The notes beneath the pieces were generated by a model that was given only the letters and a program-made list of their open reading frames with translations, did no database searches and was not told the DNA's origin. Position numbers and translations under genes: made by a program. From an uncultured Acidobacteriota bacterium (lineage in GTDB: Bacteria; Acidobacteriota; Thermoanaerobaculia; Multivoradales; UBA5704), in assembly GCA_963700145.1 (NCBI GenBank), contig OY969474.1, forward strand, positions 640,001-704,000: a stretch of DNA of 64,000 nucleotides. Direction: 5' to 3'. Positions 28,564 to 34,404 of this stretch are shown piece after piece. Within the stretch, counting starts at the first letter, position 1; every line of letters begins with the position of its first letter.

Positions 28564-28812
28564 CTAGCGGTCCCGCCGCACTTCCCGGTCGACGCGGTCG
28601 ACGAAGAGGTACAGGCCGGCGCCGGCAAGGAGCAGGACGGCCGAGGCCACCGCCGCCGGCAGCACGCCCTCGCGGTGACCGGCGAGGTAGGCCTCGAGGG
28701 TGGCGGTGAGCAGCCACATCTGGACGACGAGCAGGATGGCGATGAGCGCCAGGGCGCCGTCGATCGCGGTGGCGCCGCGGCGCGCGGCGGGGAAGCGCCT
28801 GGGGTCGTCCAT
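28564..28812 (-). CDS. Small two-TM protein (DUF6755-like), last gene of the nitrate reductase module
   Basis: LLVVQMWLLTATLEAYLAG. Confidence 0.7.
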   Translation of the reverse strand: MDDPRRFPAARRGATAIDGALALIAILLVVQMWLLTATLEAYLAGHREGVLPAAVASAVLLLAGAGLYLFVDRVDREVRRDR

Positions 28813-28816
28813 CGCT

Positions 28817-29924: not shown

Positions 29925-32177
29925 TTACCCCACCACCCGCAGGCCGCCGCCGCCGGGGCGCGGCTGGCCGGGGGAGAGTTCGCTGCGCACCCACTCGGGC
30001 GGCCCCGCGGCCTTGCGCAGGCGGCAGGCGGAGACCTTGTACTCCGGGATCTTGCTGCGCGGGTCGAGCGTGCGGTGGGTCAGGCGGTTGACGCTCCGCC
30101 CGCCCGGCCAGTGGTAGGCGATGAAGACGGTGTCCGGCCGGATGGTGCGCACCACCATCGCCTGCAGGGTGATCTCGTCCCGCCGGGTGACGACCGTCAC
30201 CCAGTCGCCGTCGGCGATGCCGTGCTCGGCCGCCAGCCGGGGGTGGATCTCGACGCGCGGGTGGGGGAACTGGTCGACCAGCGGCCCGATGCGCCGGGTC
30301 TGGGTGCCGGAGAGGTACTGGCTGACGACGCGGCCGGTCGTCAGGTAGACGGGGAACTCGCCGTCCACCGGATCGCCGCTCTCGCGCCACTCGGTGACCA
30401 GGAAGCGCGCCTTGCCGTCGGGGTGGAAGAAGCGCCCGCCCTCGAAGAGGCGCGGTGTGCCCGGGTGGTCCTCGCTCGGGCAGGGCCAGAAGACCCCCAT
30501 CTGGCGGTCGATCTTCTCGTAGGTGATGCCGGCGTAGTCGGCCGGCCCGCCGCGCGACGCCTCGCGCAGCTCGTCGAAGATCTCGCGCGTCGAGGCGTAG
30601 GGGAAGTGCTCCCCCTTCCCCAGCCGCCGCGCCAGCTCGATGAAGATGCGGCTGTCGGGCCAGGCGTCTCCCGGCGGATCGACCGCCTTGCGGATGTGCA
30701 GCACCCGGCCCTCGGCGCTGGCCACGACACCCTCCTCCTCCTCGTGCAGGCTGCCCGCCAGCACCACGTCGGCGAGCTGCGCCGTCTCCGAGAGGAAGAA
30801 GTCGACGACGGCGAAGAATTCGAGCCGCTCCAGCGCCTCGCGGACGAAGTTGGCGTCGGGCAGCGAGACGAGGGGGTTGAAGCAGATCGAGACCAGGGCC
30901 TTGATCTCGCCGCGGTGGATCGCCTCCATGATCTCCATCGCCGAGAGCCCGGCCCCCGGGATCTCCTCGGGGGAGACGCCCCAGACCCGCGCCACGTGCT
31001 CGCGGGCGGCGGGGTCGGCGATCGAGCGCTGCCCAGGGAGCTGGTCGCACTTCTGGCCGTGCTCGCGCCCTCCCTGGCCGTTGCCCTGGCCGGTGATCAT
31101 CGAGCAGCCGGCGCCCTCGCGGCCGATGTGGCCGGTGGCGAGCGCCAGGTTGATGACGGCCAGGCAGTTCTCGACCCCCTTCGACTGGTGCTCCAGGCCG
31201 CGCGCGTGGAGCAGGACGGCGCGCTCCGCCTCGCCGATCCAGTGCGCCGCCTGCTCGATCGCCGCCGGCGGCACGCCGGTCATGCGGGCGGCGGTGAGCG
31301 GGTCCCAGGCGCGCACCGACTCGGCCACCGCCTCGAAGCCGGTGGTGTGGGCGGCGATGAACTCCTTGGCTTCCAGGCCGTCGCGCAGCACGACGTGCAG
31401 CATGCCCATGAGGAGGGCGAGGTCCGTCCCCGGGCGGAGCGGCAGGTAGAGGTCGGCGTTGCGGGTGATCGGGGTCAGGCGCGGGTCGGCGACGATCAGC
31501 CGCCCGCCGCGGTCGCGGCAGCGCCAGAGGTACTGGGTGGTGATCGGCGCGCACTCGGCGATGTTGGCGCCGATGACGAAGGCCACCTGCGCCTCGGGGA
31601 TGTCGCTCCAGGGGATGGGCGAGCGGTCGACGCCGAAGGCGAGCTTGTAGGCCGTGCCCGCCGAGACCATGCAGAGGCGGCCGTTGTAGTCGATGTGCCG
31701 CGTCCCCAGGGCGAGACGGGCGAACTTGCCGATGAGGTAGGACTTCTCGGTGATCAGCGACGCGCCGCCGTAGACCGCGACGGCGTCCTTGCCCCAGCGC
31801 GCCTGCACCTCGCGCAGGCGGCGGACGGTCGTGTCCAGCGCCTCGTCCCAACCGGCGGGGCGGAAGCCGCCGGGCTCGCGCAGCAGCGGCTGGAGGAGCC
31901 GGTCGGGGTGGGCGCTCTGGAGATAGCGGCGCACGCCCTTCGGGCAGAGCATCCCCTCGTTGAACGGGAACTCCTCCCAGGGCTCGAAGCCCACCAACTG
32001 GTTGTCGCGCACCTTGAGCTGGATGCCGCACTGCTGGCCGCAGAAGCAGCAGTGGGTCTTGACCAGCCGGTCGGGCGGGTTCGCGCGCTGCTCCTCGAAG
32101 CCGCCGGGCGGCTCGTAGGCGAGCCGCGGGCCGTAGCGTGCCATCAGCGCCGCGGCGTCGAGCGGCGGCTCAGCCAC
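29925..32177 (-). CDS. Mo-bisPGD oxidoreductase, Nas/Nap-type nitrate reductase catalytic subunit
   Basis: HCCFCGQQC...CPKG [4Fe-4S]; NGRLCM active site (Cys-Met as in nitrate reductases); [15 protein letters not shown]; no Tat leader. Confidence 0.85.
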
Positions 32178-34404
32178 GGGCCTCCTCCTTCAAGCGGAGC
32201 TGCGCGTTGGCCAGGGTCTTCCGCTTGCACGCCGGGCAGAGGTCCTGCCAATGGCCGCCCGTCAGGGCATAGTCGAAGCCCAGCTCGCGCAGCGCCAGCT
32301 TGAGGTCCTCGACGTGCATGCGCGAGCCGAAGCGCTCGCCGCAGCGGGCGCAGGTGGCCCCTTCCCCCTCGTCGCCCACCTGGTGGTAGAGCTTGACGCC
32401 GAGCTGGGCGGGACGCTGGAAGATGTGGAAGAACTTGCCGAAGGGCAGGTAGAGGAGGGCGGCGACCACGGTGACGGCGTGGAGGATGGCGAGGAAGCCG
32501 TAGAAGCTCCCCGCCAGCCAGACCGTCGAGGCGGTCAGGGCCAGGCCGGTCACCGAGATGGCGAAGAGCAGGACGAGCGGGAAGAAGTCGCGCCCGAAGT
32601 TCTGCACCGCCCGCGCCCCGCGGTCCGTCATCCGCCGCCAGAGGGCGAGGCCGATGCCGCCCAGCACCAGCACCGCCGCGATGTCGAGGCCGTGGAAGAG
32701 CAGCCACGACCAGACGGTGCGGATGCGGAAGGAGCCGGTGGGGAAGCCGAAGAGGTAAGTGACGTAAGTCATCTGGTCCCCGCCGGCGCTGCCGAAGTGG
32801 ATCCAGCCGAAGACCAGCGGGAAGGTGATCGCCGCCGCCAGCAGGCAGCCCCAGAAGAGGAGCTGGTGCATCCACCAGCGCTGCCTCGAGCGCTGGCGGA
32901 TGAAGCTTTGCGCCGCGAGGTGCGTCCAGGCGAGCGGCAGCAGGCTGCGGAGGCTGCGCGCCGGCCCCAGCCGCCGGGCGAGCTGCCAGCCGCGGCGCCA
33001 GTAGATCCGCGTCGGCGGCTTCTGCAGCCAGACCCAGTAGTGGTAGGCCACGCCCCAGGTCGCGAAGACGACGGCGAAGGTGTAGACCACCAGCGCGGGA
33101 TCGAAGTTCTGCAGCTTGCGCGAGCCGACGACGATGGCGGCGGCCAGGAGCGCGGTCCAGAAGGTCGCCCAGGCGCCGGCGCGCAGGCGGTCGGCGGTGC
33201 GGGTGAGCTCGGGCGGCAGCGCCAGCTCGAGCGCCTCCTGCCGCGCCAGGAAGACGCGGCGGGCGATCCACCAGAGCAGCAGCGACGTGGCGGCGAGGAG
33301 CGCGAAGCCCGGCCAGATCACCCCCAGGCGGTCGCGGAAGAGGCCGAGCAGCAGCGGCGGGAAGAAGCCCCCGAGGCCGCCCATCGCGCCGACCAGGCCG
33401 GTGACGGTGGCGGTCTCCTGCGGGAAGTACTGCGGCACCAGCTTGAAGACCGCGCCGTTGCCGAGGCCGAGGAGCGCCGCGCAGCCGAGCGCCCCGACGG
33501 TGAAGGGGAGCATCGCCGGCCAGGTCAGGAGGAGGGCGAACGGGACGACGCCGAGGAAGACGCCGGCGACGACGCGCGCGCCGCCGATGCGGTCCGCGAG
33601 CCAGCCGCCGACGGGCCGCAGCAGGGTCGCCAGCAGCACGAACCCGGCGGCGCGGAACCCGGCGTCGGCCGCAGACAGCCCGAAGTCGTCGCGCAGCAGG
33701 CTCGGCAGGTAGATCGCGAAGGCGACGAAGCCGCCGAAGGTCAGGAAGTAGAAGAGGGCCAGGACCCACGCGAGCCGCGAGCGCAGCACCCGCAGCAGCG
33801 GCGCCAACCCCTGCGGTCGGGGAGCGGCCGGCGCGTTGCGGGCCAGCAGGGCCCAGACGATCCCCCAGGCGACGAGCAGGACGGCGACGCCGCGGAAGAC
33901 ACTCTGCCAGCCGATCGCCGCCGCCGCCAGCGGCCCGAGGAAGACTGCCGCCGACTGCCCGACGTTGCCCAAGCCGTAGACGCCGAGCGCTCCCCCCTGG
34001 CGCGCCGCCGGCGTCCAGCGCGAAACGTAGCCGACGCCCACGGGGAAGGTGGTGCCGGCGATCCCCAGGCAGAAGGCGGCGGCGAGGAGCTGGCCGAAGC
34101 CGTCGGCGTGCGGCACCAGCCAGACCGGCACGGCGGCCAGCGGCAGCAGGACGGCGAAGACCAGCCGGCCCCCGAAGCGGTCGGCGAGCATGCCGGCCGG
34201 CAGGCGCCCGACCGCGCCCAGGAGGACGGGCAAGGCGACGAGCAGCGCGGTGCGCGTGGCGCTGAGCGCGAAGAGCTCGCGGAAACGCGGCGCGAACGCG
34301 CCGATCAACCCCCAGGCGGCGAAGGAGACGGCGAACGAAACGGTGGCGAGGGCGAGATGGCGGGGCGAGGAAGGGGCCGGGGGAGTGGCGGCAGTCGACG
34401 TCAC
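32170..34404 (-). CDS. NarK-type nitrate/nitrite MFS transporter fused to a NarI-like haem-b membrane domain with C-terminal CxxC pair
   Basis: GGALGVYGLGNVG, YFLTFGGFVAF, GLGNGAVFKLVP, GAMGGLGGFFPP; then WWMHQ, LFHG, LHAVT...LPFGKFFHIF; CARC...CPAC. Confidence 0.85.
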   Translation of the reverse strand: MTSTAATPPAPSSPRHLALATVSFAVSFAAWGLIGAFAPRFRELFALSATRTALLVALPVLLGAVGRLPAGMLADRFGGRLVFAVLLPLAAVPVWLVPHADGFGQLLAAAFCLGIAGTTFPVGVGYVSRWTPAARQGGALGVYGLGNVGQSAAVFLGPLAAAAIGWQSVFRGVAVLLVAWGIVWALLARNAPAAPRPQGLAPLLRVLRSRLAWVLALFYFLTFGGFVAFAIYLPSLLRDDFGLSAADAGFRAAGFVLLATLLRPVGGWLADRIGGARVVAGVFLGVVPFALLLTWPAMLPFTVGALGCAALLGLGNGAVFKLVPQYFPQETATVTGLVGAMGGLGGFFPPLLLGLFRDRLGVIWPGFALLAATSLLLWWIARRVFLARQEALELALPPELTRTADRLRAGAWATFWTALLAAAIVVGSRKLQNFDPALVVYTFAVVFATWGVAYHYWVWLQKPPTRIYWRRGWQLARRLGPARSLRSLLPLAWTHLAAQSFIRQRSRQRWWMHQLLFWGCLLAAAITFPLVFGWIHFGSAGGDQMTYVTYLFGFPTGSFRIRTVWSWLLFHGLDIAAVLVLGGIGLALWRRMTDRGARAVQNFGRDFFPLVLLFAISVTGLALTASTVWLAGSFYGFLAILHAVTVVAALLYLPFGKFFHIFQRPAQLGVKLYHQVGDEGEGATCARCGERFGSRMHVEDLKLALRELGFDYALTGGHWQDLCPACKRKTLANAQLRLKEEARG

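Follow-up and report, generated by a model that had tools for sequence, protein, structure and literature searches.

Five genes on the minus strand (28564-34404) of the window, the 64,000-nucleotide stretch of DNA analysed here, seem to specify a membrane-bound nitrate reductase of an undescribed kind, whose haem-carrying membrane anchor is fused to a nitrate transporter. Their products probably form one quinol-linked membrane complex, acting as a cytoplasm-facing, dissimilatory (energy-conserving or redox-balancing) nitrate reductase. No description of the whole module was found in the literature; part of it was noted in one 2012 paper. In a passage by Heylen and Keltjens, a nasC-FeS-Rieske linkage in Bacillus bataviensis is read as assimilatory.

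Organisation and distribution of the module

All five frames are intact and the genes overlap or nearly abut. The stop of the fusion gene and the GTG start of the Mo enzyme overlap by 8 nt, the ferredoxin ATG lies 5 nt past the Mo enzyme stop, the ferredoxin and Rieske genes share a GTGA overlap and a spacer of 4 nt precedes the DUF6755 gene. The tight coupling claimed in the original prediction is thus borne out, with nothing but overlaps or gaps of 4-5 nt on the minus strand. The Pfam and NCBIfam domains of the five products bear out the domain assignments made earlier from sequence alone; they are MFS_1/NarK; Molybdop_Fe4S4, Molybdopterin and Molydop_binding; Fer4_11; Rieske; and DUF6755.

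The module was compared with a sample of 80 related loci, of which 64 are complete and the remaining 16 stop at a contig edge within the module. Gene order and strand, followed as six query segments, are kept in 64/64 loci of sufficient length, and these span at least five phyla. By this constancy, the Nas-like enzyme and the membrane subunits form an inseparable set. The listed length is about 740 aa in nearly all of 2665 homologues of the fusion protein (E <= 0.001), which are therefore taken as fused. The fused form was found in at least 494 species genomes and an unfused version at 39 loci, the majority from named Bacillaceae strains; stand-alone and fused relatives together make up 1184 representative clusters (E <= 0.001). 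The module looks to be widespread among uncultured soil bacteria.

Subunits and their predicted assembly

The fusion protein (744 aa; 32170..34404, minus strand, as are the other parts of the module) comprises a NarK-type MFS transporter (residues ~1-385), a six-helix NarI-superfamily di-haem b domain (~400-660) and a Cys4 knob (~678-744). It scores 165 bits against Pfam MFS_1 and 209.9 bits against the NCBIfam NarK family, below the cut-off of 311.7. The best solved relatives of the transporter part (33250..34404, boundary approximate) are NarU (4iu8, E 4e-19) and NarK (4jr9/4u4t, E 2.5e-14). Alignment to these keeps the signature stretches GxGNxG and GGxGGFF, as well as the GRLP and LRPVGG stretches with both arginines, which we take to be the substrate-binding residues of NarK/NarU.

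The second domain (32374..33207) is, by profile and model comparison, a NarI-superfamily di-haem protein. Its AF2 model (mean pLDDT 95) has six transmembrane helices, with a three-strand sheet on the outward-facing side. Fusion residues 436-668 give weak NCBIfam matches to TcuB/QmoC/TmcC, and the profile of the domain matches E. coli NarI in the PDB at E 7.5e-4, with H642 and H660 aligned to the ‘LH’ and ‘PFSRLIHIW’ stretches of that protein. The VIA comparison gave Z 11.6 for EtfD (9ojn; rmsd 4.1, 227 aligned) and Z 10.6 for NarI (1q16_C; rmsd 4.5, 180 aligned), values which for helical bundles become distinctive only from Z ~13. The Foldseek E-values for the same fold matches are weak (0.024-0.09). 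The extra domain had been credited with four NarI-like histidines and two CxxC pairs. The two pairs stand but the count of four does not, as five histidines are invariant (H455, H513, H571, H642 and H660, each conserved in 80-81 of the 81 aligned homologues).

Charge counts in the haem domain are consistent with an N-in/C-in topology, and the even number of helices places the following knob in the cytoplasm. This knob (32173..32373) carries a CxxC-x34-CxxC arrangement, C685/C688 and C723/C726, with both pairs invariant in 81/81 aligned homologues, and resembles a HycF metal site. Its profile matches HycF residues 115-165 (E 0.0079), and HycF 7z0s_F is also its best Foldseek match (E 0.078, prob 0.99, TMq 0.63, rmsd 2.6 over 51 columns). 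According to PMC9474812, a single metal ion next to FdhF is held by HycF Cys117/120/155/158, which also contact HycB. By analogy, the knob is likely to be a single-metal site at which the ferredoxin and the Mo subunit dock.

The catalytic subunit (750 aa; 29925..32177) is of the Mo-bisPGD, Nas/Nap type, with three Pfam domains and no signal peptide. NCBIfam places NasC first (768.7 bits, cut-off 1100), followed by Fdh-alpha (593), NapA (232) and NarG (32.6). The active-site motif is R167-L-C169-M170; formate dehydrogenases have Cys/Sec-His at the position aligned with Cys169-Met170. The translated N-terminus contains no twin-arginine motif, in line with the earlier description of a Cys-Met enzyme lacking a Tat leader. 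How the fused type and the Bacillota module type relate to each other and to canonical NasC was not settled by a small tree of 25 rows, built by a quick method. The ferredoxin (197 aa; 29326..29919) holds 16 ligand cysteines in four groups, CxxCxxCxxxC, CxxCx4CxxxC, CxxCxxCxxxC and CxxCx11CxxxC. It matches Fer4_11 at 72.7 bits and, as its top NCBIfam family, DmsB at 89.9 bits (below cut-off). Its solved relatives are FdnH (3.4e-21), HDCR HycB3 (9e-20), FHL HycB (1.2e-16) and NarH (7.4e-10). The Mo and ferredoxin subunits are nearest to FdhF-type and HycB/FdnH-type proteins.

The Rieske [2Fe-2S] protein (170 aa; 28817..29329; Pfam Rieske 42.1 bits) begins with an RRxFxK motif and one transmembrane helix, which would leave the cluster domain outside the cytoplasm. 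The twin-arginine-like anchor noted previously is confirmed as NRRQFAKF followed by a single hydrophobic helix, with R29, R30 and K34 invariant in 20/20 sequences. The boxes CTHLSC and CPCH, with the two extra cysteines of the bc type, are equally invariant (20/20). The closest solved proteins are the Thermus bc Rieske (2.5e-16), AioB (4.3e-16) and b6f PetC (5.5e-16), whereas dioxygenase-type ferredoxins match only at 2e-6 or weaker. Its sequence thus places it among the exported, respiratory Rieske proteins (bc/Aio type). The last gene (28564..28812) encodes an 82-aa two-helix hairpin with both ends predicted to be cytoplasmic, which matches Pfam DUF6755 at 56.8 bits (cut-off 27). It is a single-copy gene in the host genome and always the final gene of the module.

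Multimer structure prediction, suggested earlier as a check, was applied to the Rieske protein, DUF6755 and the haem domain. The prediction passed its controls: the median score was 0.66, against 0.38 for the best of three controls, and the mark used is reached by 58/80 solved complexes and 2/110 mismatched pairs. Contact agreement between runs was at least 89% and partner pLDDT at least 78. In the model, Rieske residues 105-113 and 126-130 contact haem-domain residues 137-148, 162-171 and 227-240 on the outer face, and both the Rieske transmembrane helix and the cluster loops lie within the predicted interface. The lowest-error contacts (0.9-1.1 A) join DUF6755 28-61 with Rieske 39-50. The model therefore predicts that the Rieske cluster loops rest against the outer side of the haem domain and that DUF6755 clamps the Rieske anchor. 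The PDB matches obtained included no Rieske protein in complex with a NarI-type protein, so the pass is unlikely to reflect memory of a solved structure.

Proposed mechanism and alternative readings

Quinol would be oxidised on the outer side of the membrane, where the Rieske centre and the NarI-like domain's outer haem would together make up the site, while DUF6755 would keep the Rieske anchor pressed to that domain. Electrons would then traverse the membrane via two b haems, for which the candidate ligands are H571/H642 (outer) and H660 with H455 or H513 (inner). From there they would pass to the four-cluster ferredoxin and on to the Mo subunit, the two being docked on the Cys4 knob in an arrangement like that of FdhF and HycB at the HycF Cys4 site. 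The fused NarK domain would import nitrate and export nitrite close to the active site. The NarU/NarK-like transporter, the NasC-best Mo subunit and its Cys-Met pair all point to nitrate as the substrate. Sequence, context and models are the basis on which nitrate reduction, the use of quinol and the physiological role are proposed; haem binding, Mo/ferredoxin docking, proton-motive yield and regulation are likewise putative. Unlike the scheme for the module, the NarI-type anchor of NarGHI oxidises quinol without a Rieske protein, and the need for one here is left unexplained. The distinct membrane-linked architecture that had been suggested for a cytoplasmic Nas-like enzyme gains support from gene order, the NarI-superfamily domain, the predicted Rieske docking and gene context.

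The host genome is a single contig, 95.4% complete, and contains four Molybdopterin-family loci, of which the Mo gene of the module is the only nitrate-reductase-like one. The absence of nirB/nirA and narG, first noted for the window, extends to the whole genome, with no match to NIR_SIR (the sirohaem nitrite/sulfite reductase domain) and no NarG above cut-off; NrfA also gave no match. There is thus no recognisable nitrite-to-ammonium enzyme of the kinds searched for, NIR_SIR and NrfA. A Cytochrom_D1 match was rejected as NirS, the protein being a YVTN propeller. A NirK-like match was also rejected, as a two-domain multicopper oxidase (PDB 7rab, 363 bits, versus 181 for nitrite reductase). Lacking NIR_SIR, NrfA, NirS, canonical NirK and NarG, this genome makes an assimilatory role for the module here unlikely, judging from its gene content.

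Elsewhere, the module adjoins genes of NO stress and anaerobic respiration, not nirBD. Upstream same-strand neighbours at the 80 loci include RIC/YtfE-type (32), Crp/Fnr (24-25), NnrS-like (17-22) and hemerythrin (10-11) genes, and 30 of the 65 loci having more than 3 kb upstream carry one or more of the RIC/YtfE-type, Crp/Fnr and NnrS-like genes there. No nirB/nirA cluster is among the 25 commonest flank clusters. The four Bacillaceae loci that were examined closely are adjoined by RIC (279.9 bits, cut-off 204.7), Crp/Fnr, TIGR04053 radical-SAM, YwiC-like, Mrp/ApbC and separate narK genes. This linkage, with the missing nitrite-to-ammonium enzyme in the host, favours the sink or respiratory role originally proposed. 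The module is also separate from the canonical systems: NarG exceeds cut-off in only 5/44 module genomes, and canonical NasC occurs as a separate paralogue in 2/5 Bacillaceae genomes.

An assimilatory Nas variant, drawing membrane electrons instead of ferredoxin or NADH and passing nitrite to a reductase encoded elsewhere, is in general an unlikely reading. NasC is the best NCBIfam family for the Mo subunit, at 768.7 bits here and 908 in Pontibacillus, but both fall under the cut-off of 1100. NIR_SIR proteins occur elsewhere in 39 of the 44 other module-bearing genomes (about 15 of these with NirB-sized frames), so the module could also feed nitrite to assimilation there; the five without include a complete Bacillus salacetis genome. 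In Mesobacillus maritimus nirB lies ~16 kb from one module copy. Nevertheless, the conserved neighbours argue against this reading, as does canonical NasC (at least 1100 bits) standing beside the module type (886-927 bits) in 2/5 Bacillaceae genomes; that of M. maritimus has its own narK-like neighbour, with nirB elsewhere.

The Rieske protein might, improbably, connect the complex to periplasmic redox proteins instead of forming part of a quinol site. Cytochromes c could supply the electrons, as in the periplasmic option first suggested, one example of a source being Fe(II) oxidised via a neighbouring MtrAB/PioAB-like conduit, or quinol oxidation could be bifurcated as in bc complexes, one electron leaving via the Rieske protein to periplasmic acceptors and the other reaching nitrate via the b haems. 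Members of the bc/b6f/arsenite-oxidase class do trade electrons with soluble carriers, the Rieske protein sits at the outer end of the modelled chain, and a dead operon copy lies beside conduit-type genes. Yet none of the 25 flank clusters commonest at the 80 loci consists of conduit genes, and the module includes no cytochrome c gene. Going by textbook midpoint potentials, the step from cytochrome c to cytoplasmic nitrate has little driving force, and it crosses the membrane against the potential. A different topology is very improbable: the Mo subunit, which lacks its own signal, and the ferredoxin would be exported by the Rieske Tat signal and nitrate reduced outside, as AioA is co-exported with AioB in arsenite oxidase. 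The Rieske profile does match AioB about as well as the bc Rieske, but a nitrate/nitrite transporter fused to the anchor would have little purpose were nitrate reduced outside, the HycF-like knob faces the cytoplasm and the Rieske cluster loops are taken up by the haem domain in the model. It is just as doubtful that the complex oxidises nitrite, with electrons leaving through the high-potential Rieske centre aided by the membrane potential, or that it reduces another oxyanion such as chlorate or selenate. The chain is symmetrical, an outer-face bc-type Rieske protein would suit electron exit, NarK-type antiporters serve either direction and some hosts, such as Mesobacillus selenatarsenatis, are oxyanion respirers. 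However, the Mo site and family are of the nitrate-reducing Nas/Nap kind, the Crp/Fnr, YwiC and narK neighbours at the four Bacillaceae loci are typical of anaerobic nitrate respiration, and the nitrite oxidoreductases known so far are all NarG-type.

Regulator pair and remnant operon copy

The operon in the window has no NO-stress neighbours. Divergent to it, on the plus strand (34479..36521), is a two-component pair whose sensor kinase (34479-35855) has GAF and HisKA_3 domains and whose response regulator (35865-36521) is of the NarL/LuxR type. The best matches are NarQ for the kinase transmitter (111 bits) and NarL for the regulator (154.7 bits), both below cut-off. The pair lies beside the module in 0/80 related loci and is, from its sequence and position, a possible local regulator specific to the host genome.

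A dead remnant of a second operon copy is located at 39974..40314 on the minus strand, where fusion codons 1-98 run, out of frame, into the final ~55 nt of the DUF6755 gene. It was seen by tblastn and translation, and its start codon reads GTA. The corresponding direct repeats are 34110-34392/40017-40299 (95%) and 28563-28617/39974-40028 (87%). The remnant lies 8 nt behind a MtrB/PioB porin gene, accompanied by a MtrA-like multihaem gene, and a NapC/NirT-type cytochrome is encoded nearby.

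Subunits of the module

The module consists of five intact reading frames on the minus strand (28564-34404), which overlap or almost abut within a region of about 0.72 GC in a GC-rich window. The fusion gene (32170-34404; 744 amino acids, aa) is the first of the operon. It is followed by the gene for the Mo enzyme (29925-32177; 750 aa), which has a GTG start and an 8-nt overlap with the preceding stop. The ferredoxin gene (29326-29919; 197 aa) starts 5 nt past the Mo stop and shares a GTGA overlap with the Rieske gene (28817-29329; 170 aa). After a 4-nt spacer, the operon ends with the gene for a small DUF6755 protein (28564-28812; 82 aa). 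The domain calls of the original prediction were matched by family scans, which assigned residues ~1-350 of the fusion to MFS_1 and the NarK family, found three molybdopterin-oxidoreductase domains in the Mo enzyme, and recognised a four-cluster, DmsB/HycB-like ferredoxin with 16 Cys, a Rieske protein and DUF6755. The operon contains neither narJ nor a cytochrome c gene, and inspection by eye of the 74-nt gap 5′ of the fusion gene revealed no evident FNR-like box. The adjacent encoding of a Mo subunit, a 16-Cys ferredoxin and a membrane haem domain, kept in relatives, is the layout of complex iron-sulfur molybdoenzymes.

The best curated model for the Mo subunit is NasC (NF047855), at 768.7 bits and below the cut-off of 1100. 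The haloarchaeal NasA model gave 406 bits (cut-off 1000), the NapA models 230-232 bits (cut-offs 904-930) and NarG (TIGR01580) 32.6 bits (cut-off 1084). The Cys-Met site without a Tat leader, as first described, was borne out: Cys169-Met170 is present, aligned with the Cys/Sec-His pair of formate dehydrogenases, and there is no twin-arginine motif in the first 38 residues. The nearest solved structures are HDCR FdhF (488 bits), Desulfovibrio NapA (374 bits) and FdhH (339.8 bits), and those nearest the ferredoxin are FdnH and HycB-type proteins. A Mo-enzyme phylogeny had been suggested as a check. In a quick tree of 25 hand-picked rows, exclusive of cyanobacterial NarB, proteobacterial NasA and NapA, supported groups were formed by 11 rows of the fused type, 7 of the Bacillota module type and 3 of canonical Bacillota NasC; the tree did not fix the branching order among them. 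Phyla are intermixed inside the fused type, which on sequence grounds suggests lateral transfer.

The transporter part of the fusion is closest to solved NarU (4iu8, E 4e-19), then NarK (E 2.5e-14). Both arginines and both Gly-rich signature stretches, presumably the substrate-binding residues of nitrate transporters, are preserved in the NarU alignment, so that the MFS fold, two Arg and two nitrate signature motifs expected of a NarK/NNP transporter are all found. The fusion scores 209.9 bits with TIGR00886, against a full-length cut-off of 311.7.

The remainder of the fusion is more divergent. Residues 400-744 by themselves gave weak TcuB/QmoC/TmcC matches in NCBIfam, and the window's own haem domain has no match in a Pfam scan at E <= 0.01. 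A profile of 45 fused and stand-alone homologues found E. coli NarI as its best solved match (E 7.5e-4), with H642 and H660 aligned to the NarI helix V stretch ‘LH...PFSRLIHIW’. The stand-alone relative P0215 passes the Pfam Nitrate_red_gam model (23.5 bits against 22.9). An AlphaFold model (mean pLDDT 95) has six TM helices, with a three-strand sheet inserted between the third and fourth and a small knob at the C-terminus. When 48,161 chains were compared by VIA, a method separate from Foldseek, the top rank went to the mycobacterial membrane protein EtfD (Z 11.6, rmsd 4.1, 227 aligned) and the next to NarI (Z 10.6, rmsd 4.5, 180 aligned), values that for helical bundles are not decisive alone. 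Foldseek also placed EtfD and NarI at the top, with weak E-values, none <= 0.001. Putative membership of the NarI superfamily is nonetheless accepted, because the profile match and the His pattern join the fold matches.

Four NarI-like His residues and two CxxC motifs had been predicted in this domain. The two CxxC motifs were retained, and the His count was corrected to five; the five His and the four knob Cys are preserved in 80-81 of 81 aligned homologues. By charge counts, the C-terminus and the 461-506 loop, which has 10 Lys/Arg but not one acidic residue, would be cytoplasmic, whereas the sheet would lie outside. Haem binding is predicted, with H571 and H642 as candidate outer haem ligands.

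The knob has the spacing CxxC-x34-CxxC (C685/688/723/726), the same as that of Cys 117/120/155/158 in HycF of the E. coli formate hydrogenlyase, and the homologue profile matches HycF residues 115-165 (E 0.0079). When the knob was modelled separately (pLDDT 87.8), the best Foldseek match was HycF (E 0.078, prob 0.99, TMq 0.63), with no match at E <= 0.001; superposition gave an rmsd of 2.6 over 51 columns. According to the accessible text of a cryo-EM study, Cys117, 120, 155 and 158 of HycF hold a single metal ion, tentatively iron, at a site which adjoins FdhF within an extension contacting HycB (PMC9474812). By analogy, the knob is a putative cytoplasmic docking place for the ferredoxin and Mo subunits, given its likeness to HycF and the position of FdhF-type and FdnH/HycB-type proteins as the nearest relatives of these two subunits.

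The Rieske protein has an Arg-rich N-terminus (NRRQFAKF), a single hydrophobic helix, and the boxes CTHLSC and CPCH. R29, R30, K34, C107, H109, C112, C125, C127 and H128 are invariant in 20 of 20 Rieske sequences, four of them from Bacillaceae. The two extra box Cys are presumably the disulfide-forming pair of bc-type Rieske proteins. At the sequence level, therefore, the twin-Arg signal-anchor, the boxes and the Cys pair of respiratory (bc/b6f/Aio-type) Rieske proteins are all present. The closest solved proteins are the Thermus bc Rieske protein, arsenite oxidase AioB and b6f PetC (E ~1e-16), and soluble dioxygenase-type Rieske ferredoxins match far more weakly (E 2e-6 or weaker); for this reason the protein is assigned by sequence to the exported respiratory class and not to the NirD/NasG class, export being predicted. 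All specific NCBIfam Rieske models score under their cut-offs. The DUF6755 protein (Pfam PF20540; 56.8 bits against a gathering threshold of 27) belongs to a family with no assigned function and is a two-helix hairpin with Arg-rich ends.

Multimer prediction had likewise been proposed as a check, and its Rieske part was carried out with the haem domain, DUF6755 and Rieske, the last being the scored partner. The median score was 0.66, against 0.38 for the best of three controls. Among solved complexes 58 of 80 attain the score mark, and among mismatched pairs 2 of 110, rates which apply only roughly here because own alignments and three chains were used. Contact agreement between runs was at least 89% and partner pLDDT at least 78. 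The control scoring 0.38 retained DUF6755, which fits with the tightest contacts being those of the Rieske helix (39-50) with both DUF6755 helices. In the model, the Rieske cluster loops (105-113, 126-130) contact haem-domain residues 137-148, 162-171 and 227-240, which form the outer sheet together with the loops immediately preceding H571 and H642. The prediction supports binding between Rieske, haem domain and DUF6755, as a modelled interaction.

Distribution and genomic context

A query with the C-terminal domain returned 2665 proteins at E <= 0.001 among 8000 candidates scored, nearly all of those listed being ~740 aa long and thus fused. Its relatives occur in at least 494 species genomes, mainly of Acidobacteriota, where record titles name Thermoanaerobaculia, Terriglobia, Bryobacterales, Vicinamibacteria and Holophagales. 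Other carriers of the fused form include Verrucomicrobiota, Dormibacterota, Chloroflexota and Actinomycetota, and Limnocylindrales and Acidimicrobiia are among the further groups named in titles. Among the best 80 loci, 64 contain every part with identical order and strand, and the other 16 stop inside the module at a contig end. The 160 loci of the fused form listed by two scans (some in both) are all titled as metagenome-assembled genomes. DUF6755 is found in 15 of the 151 genomes searched in the host phylum, 11 of these above the cut-off; this was too few to cross-tabulate, for which 44 other module-carrying genomes were taken. Sampled words are shared, at 0.21-0.36, by 20 DNA sequencing runs from 13 studies, mostly labelled as soil, figures which carry no evidence on expression or habitat; no RNA runs were listed among those sharing words.

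An exhaustive search of 50%-identity representatives gave 1184 clusters, including stand-alone forms of 340-390 aa. One of these, the stand-alone anchor of Mesobacillus foraminis (a match to the Pfam NarI model), led to 39 unfused loci, mostly from named Bacillaceae strains. The order anchor, Mo, ferredoxin and Rieske is kept in 38 of the 39, and one locus is cut short. Their Mo subunit is 46-49% identical to that of the window. In the four Bacillaceae loci that were read fully, a two-helix protein of 63-76 aa comes next, and three of these proteins aligned with DUF6755.

The host genome is a single contig of 5.46 Mb, 95.4% complete. The statement that the window holds no NirB/NirA or NarG gene extends to the whole genome: NIR_SIR (PF01077) has no match, its control being positive in 11 of 14 known genomes, and NarG (TIGR01580) reaches at most 25.6 bits against the cut-off of 1084. 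NrfA is also absent from the host genome. The sole Cytochrom_D1 match (51.5 bits) is a YVTN beta-propeller protein, so NirS was rejected, as was canonical NirK, since the 96.8-bit match is a two-domain multicopper oxidase. With no route from nitrite to ammonium recognised in the host by the searches for NIR_SIR and NrfA, assimilation is an unlikely purpose of the module there. As separate observations, the lack of NIR_SIR means that sirohaem sulfite reductase is absent too, which bears on the supply of reduced sulfur, and the host has a cluster of multicopper oxidase genes (G000:C1 2822-2847 kb, loci L004-L007), one of the two-domain type being close to PDB 7rab.

Four loci of the host genome belong to the Molybdopterin family, and that of the module is the only nitrate-reductase-like one. 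The others are a selenocysteine FdnG-like formate dehydrogenase, an unassigned enzyme of the DMSO-reductase family and one short match. The formate dehydrogenase (G000:C1:1846-1850 kb, locus L011) scores 1841.6 bits when TGA is read as Sec.

Neighbours in the 80 fused loci lie mostly upstream on the same strand, and their representatives were confirmed by Pfam. They comprise a RIC/YtfE-type di-iron protein (32/80), a Crp/Fnr regulator (24-25/80), an NnrS-like membrane protein (17-22/80; weak in Pfam, at 24 bits against a cut-off of 28), hemerythrins (10-11/80), a membrane 4Fe-4S protein (10/80) and a DUF438-hemerythrin-PAS protein (5-6/80). At least one of RIC, NnrS or Crp is found upstream in 30 of the 65 loci that have more than 3 kb there. 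The 25 commonest flank clusters of the 80 loci include no nitrite reductase cluster. Terriglobia queries for RIC, NnrS, hemerythrin and DUF438 had no relative in the host genome at 1e-6 by tblastn, which is a weak search.

In Bacillaceae, as judged from the four loci read fully and tblastn matches across the 39, the neighbours are RIC (279.9 bits, cut-off 204.7), a TIGR04053 radical-SAM protein (521 bits, cut-off 395), Crp/Fnr, a YwiC-like protein, an Mrp/ApbC carrier, separate narK genes and molybdenum cofactor genes. The locus resembles one for anaerobic nitrate respiration in which narGHJI has been replaced. Among 44 other module-carrying genomes, NarG is above its cut-off in 5, and NIR_SIR proteins occur in 39; the 5 without them include the complete genome of Bacillus salacetis. 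Cultured strains that carry the unfused module but no NarG above the cut-off include Pontibacillus marinus DSM 16465, Bacillus salacetis SM2309 and Mesobacillus selenatarsenatis SF-1. Of 5 Bacillaceae genomes, 2 have both canonical NasC (at least 1100 bits) and the module type (886-927 bits). Mesobacillus maritimus (genome G189; loci L111, L134, L135) has two full unfused modules, a canonical narK-nasC pair and a separate nirB cluster, and is a useful species for telling the functions apart.

Proposed function and relation to known systems

The best reading, considered fairly probable, is that of a quinol-linked dissimilatory nitrate reductase with reduction taking place in the cytoplasm. On the outer side of the membrane, quinol would give up its electrons to the Rieske centre and the outer haem. 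Two b haems would then carry electrons across the membrane to the four-cluster ferredoxin and on to the cytoplasmic Mo site, where nitrate would be reduced, and next to the enzyme the fused NarK would take in nitrate in exchange for nitrite. As in NarGHI, proton release would be external and proton consumption internal, and in the host the nitrite would be exported. The likeness to NarGHI with NarK includes the cytoplasm-facing catalytic subunit, the four-cluster subunit, the putative di-haem anchor of the NarI superfamily and the predicted nitrate/nitrite exchange by a NarK-type transporter. In contrast to NarGHI, the catalytic subunit is not NarG and its ligand class is Cys rather than Asp. 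The ferredoxin is small and of HycB/FdnH type, scoring 34 bits with the NarH model against 524. The anchor differs from NarI in having six helices, an outer sheet, a Cys4 knob and a fused transporter, and the operon lacks narJ and adds Rieske and DUF6755. The weakest point of this reading is the role of the Rieske centre, as NarGHI works without one.

A variant of the assimilatory nitrate reductase is unlikely. NasC/NasA/NarB is the nearest family to the Mo subunit, and shares with it the cytoplasmic location, the N-terminal [4Fe-4S] domain and the Cys-Met site. However, the subunit falls below the NasC cut-off and its partners are membrane proteins, the operon encoding no Nas-type donor partner, whether NasB/NirB, ferredoxin or flavodoxin. 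There is also no linkage to nitrite reductase, the host lacks the sirohaem enzyme, and canonical NasC is present separately in some genomes. It is very improbable that the enzyme has an exported topology as in arsenite oxidase. Reverse chemistry, or a substrate other than nitrate, is similarly given very little weight.

Other known systems resemble single parts. The Rieske protein shares with AioAB, as with bc1/b6f, its predicted Tat anchor, the CTHxxC and CPCH boxes and the extra Cys pair. The module is distinct from Nap: the Mo subunit carries no Tat signal and scores below the NapA cut-offs, and the operon has no cytochrome c gene. The soluble arm of formate hydrogenlyase (FdhF-HycB-HycF) is similar in that the Mo subunit is nearest FdhF-type enzymes, the relatives of the ferredoxin include HycB, and the knob has the spacing and putatively the fold of the HycF metal site. 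The differences are that the knob is on a NarI-type protein rather than a NuoI-like one, Met replaces the His after Cys/Sec, and hydrogenase subunits are absent.

The Rieske centre could instead be a port to periplasmic carriers, or a bifurcating site, although the chance of this is judged to be small. In the model, as in bc1/b6f, the Rieske protein is turned towards a haem b protein, here a predicted one, on the outer side of the membrane. Unlike bc1/b6f, the haem partner is NarI-type, no bc-type cytochrome b and no c1/f is encoded in the operon, and the low-potential end leads to a molybdoenzyme rather than to a quinone-reduction site. More specifically, and with an equally small chance, the Rieske protein and the NarI-type domain might form a new, bc-like, electron-splitting quinol site, from which one electron would go to cytoplasmic nitrate and the other would be exchanged through Rieske with periplasmic carriers. 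Nitrate reduction would then be coupled to processes linked to cytochrome c.

Part of the unfused arrangement has been noticed before. In the accessible text of one study, genes for an iron-sulfur protein and a Rieske protein come after a short NasC gene in Bacillus bataviensis, a linkage common to other bacilli, for which Heylen and Keltjens (2012) proposed an alternative assimilatory system (PMC3475470). This is probably the unfused Bacillaceae form of the module; the same text is silent on a membrane anchor, a Cys4 domain, a small TM protein and a fused transporter (PMC3475470). Broad surveys of the DMSO-reductase family, in the accessible part of the source, class NasC/NasA as assimilatory only (PMC10100899). 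Searches of open-access main texts brought up no account of the module as a whole, nor of its anchor, its fusion, its Cys4 knob or a respiratory reading, and no paper naming DUF6755. Public records annotate the module piecemeal, as ‘MFS transporter’ (the fusion), ‘nitrate reductase gamma subunit’ and DUF6755. The module would be a nitrate-reducing complex iron-sulfur molybdoenzyme, of a known kind but with a new set of subunits.

Three bacterial nitrate reductase systems, Nas, Nap and Nar, are distinguished in textbooks. The module would be a fourth arrangement, joining a Nas/Nap-type Mo subunit to a NarI-type haem domain with its fused NarK and to a Rieske protein of bc type, and a site where Rieske and a NarI-type cytochrome together oxidise quinol would be of a new kind. 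Uncultured soil lineages commonly carry the fused form. If its role is dissimilatory, some of the capacity of these phyla to turn nitrate into nitrite would be wrongly assigned by surveys which score the Mo subunit as assimilatory nasA/nasC. Nitrite would be released by any host that lacks a recognised nitrite reductase, with consequences for the formation of NO and N2O and for cross-feeding. Because cultured Bacillaceae carry the unfused form, the idea is open to direct test.

Surroundings of the operon in the window

In place of the usual upstream neighbours, the window has divergent genes for a GAF-HisKA_3 kinase and a regulator of NarL type, with one for a CBS-pair protein next in line. 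Not one of the 80 related loci has this arrangement.

A dead copy of the operon (39974-40314, minus strand) lies ~5.6 kb upstream. Codons 1-98 of the fusion (95% DNA identity to 34110-34392), with the start codon mutated to GTA, run out of frame into the final ~55 nt of the DUF6755 gene (87%, 28563-28617). This is a deletion remnant, so the operon was formerly duplicated. The remnant starts 8 nt past the stop of a gene for an MtrB/PioB-type outer-membrane porin (40322-42832, minus strand; 319 bits), which itself comes after the gene for an MtrA-like multihaem cytochrome (42627-43685, minus strand); a gene for a NapC/NirT-type cytochrome (44099-44755, plus strand) is close by. Together, the genes at 40322-44755 resemble an extracellular electron conduit. 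Its position next to the dead copy is the only pointer to extracellular electron transfer, a hint which is not conserved elsewhere. If the electron-splitting site were real, the coupled processes in the host could include Fe(II) oxidation through this MtrAB/PioAB-like conduit, which once adjoined the second operon copy.

Besides the gene for the CBS-pair protein, the stretch between the regulator pair and the dead copy (36540-39978, plus strand) contains two genes that look like a small peptide-modification set, one for a radical-SAM protein and the other for an ATP-grasp protein with PGM1_C. On the other side of the operon, an rve-type integrase gene (23861-25165, plus strand) is followed by a stretch of lower GC (0.62 against ~0.72). 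It contains a 404-aa frame with a weak match to the CAP12/Pycsar TIR domain (20.9 bits, below the cut-off) and two frames with no family. The segment 23861-27908 may be mobile or defence DNA abutting the operon region. A dodecin gene (28323-28526, minus strand) with its own ribosome-binding-like stretch is located 37 nt behind the operon. Neither this gene nor a second dodecin gene of the window is conserved beside the module elsewhere; the second (~63126-63326) encodes a protein with 82% amino-acid identity to the first.
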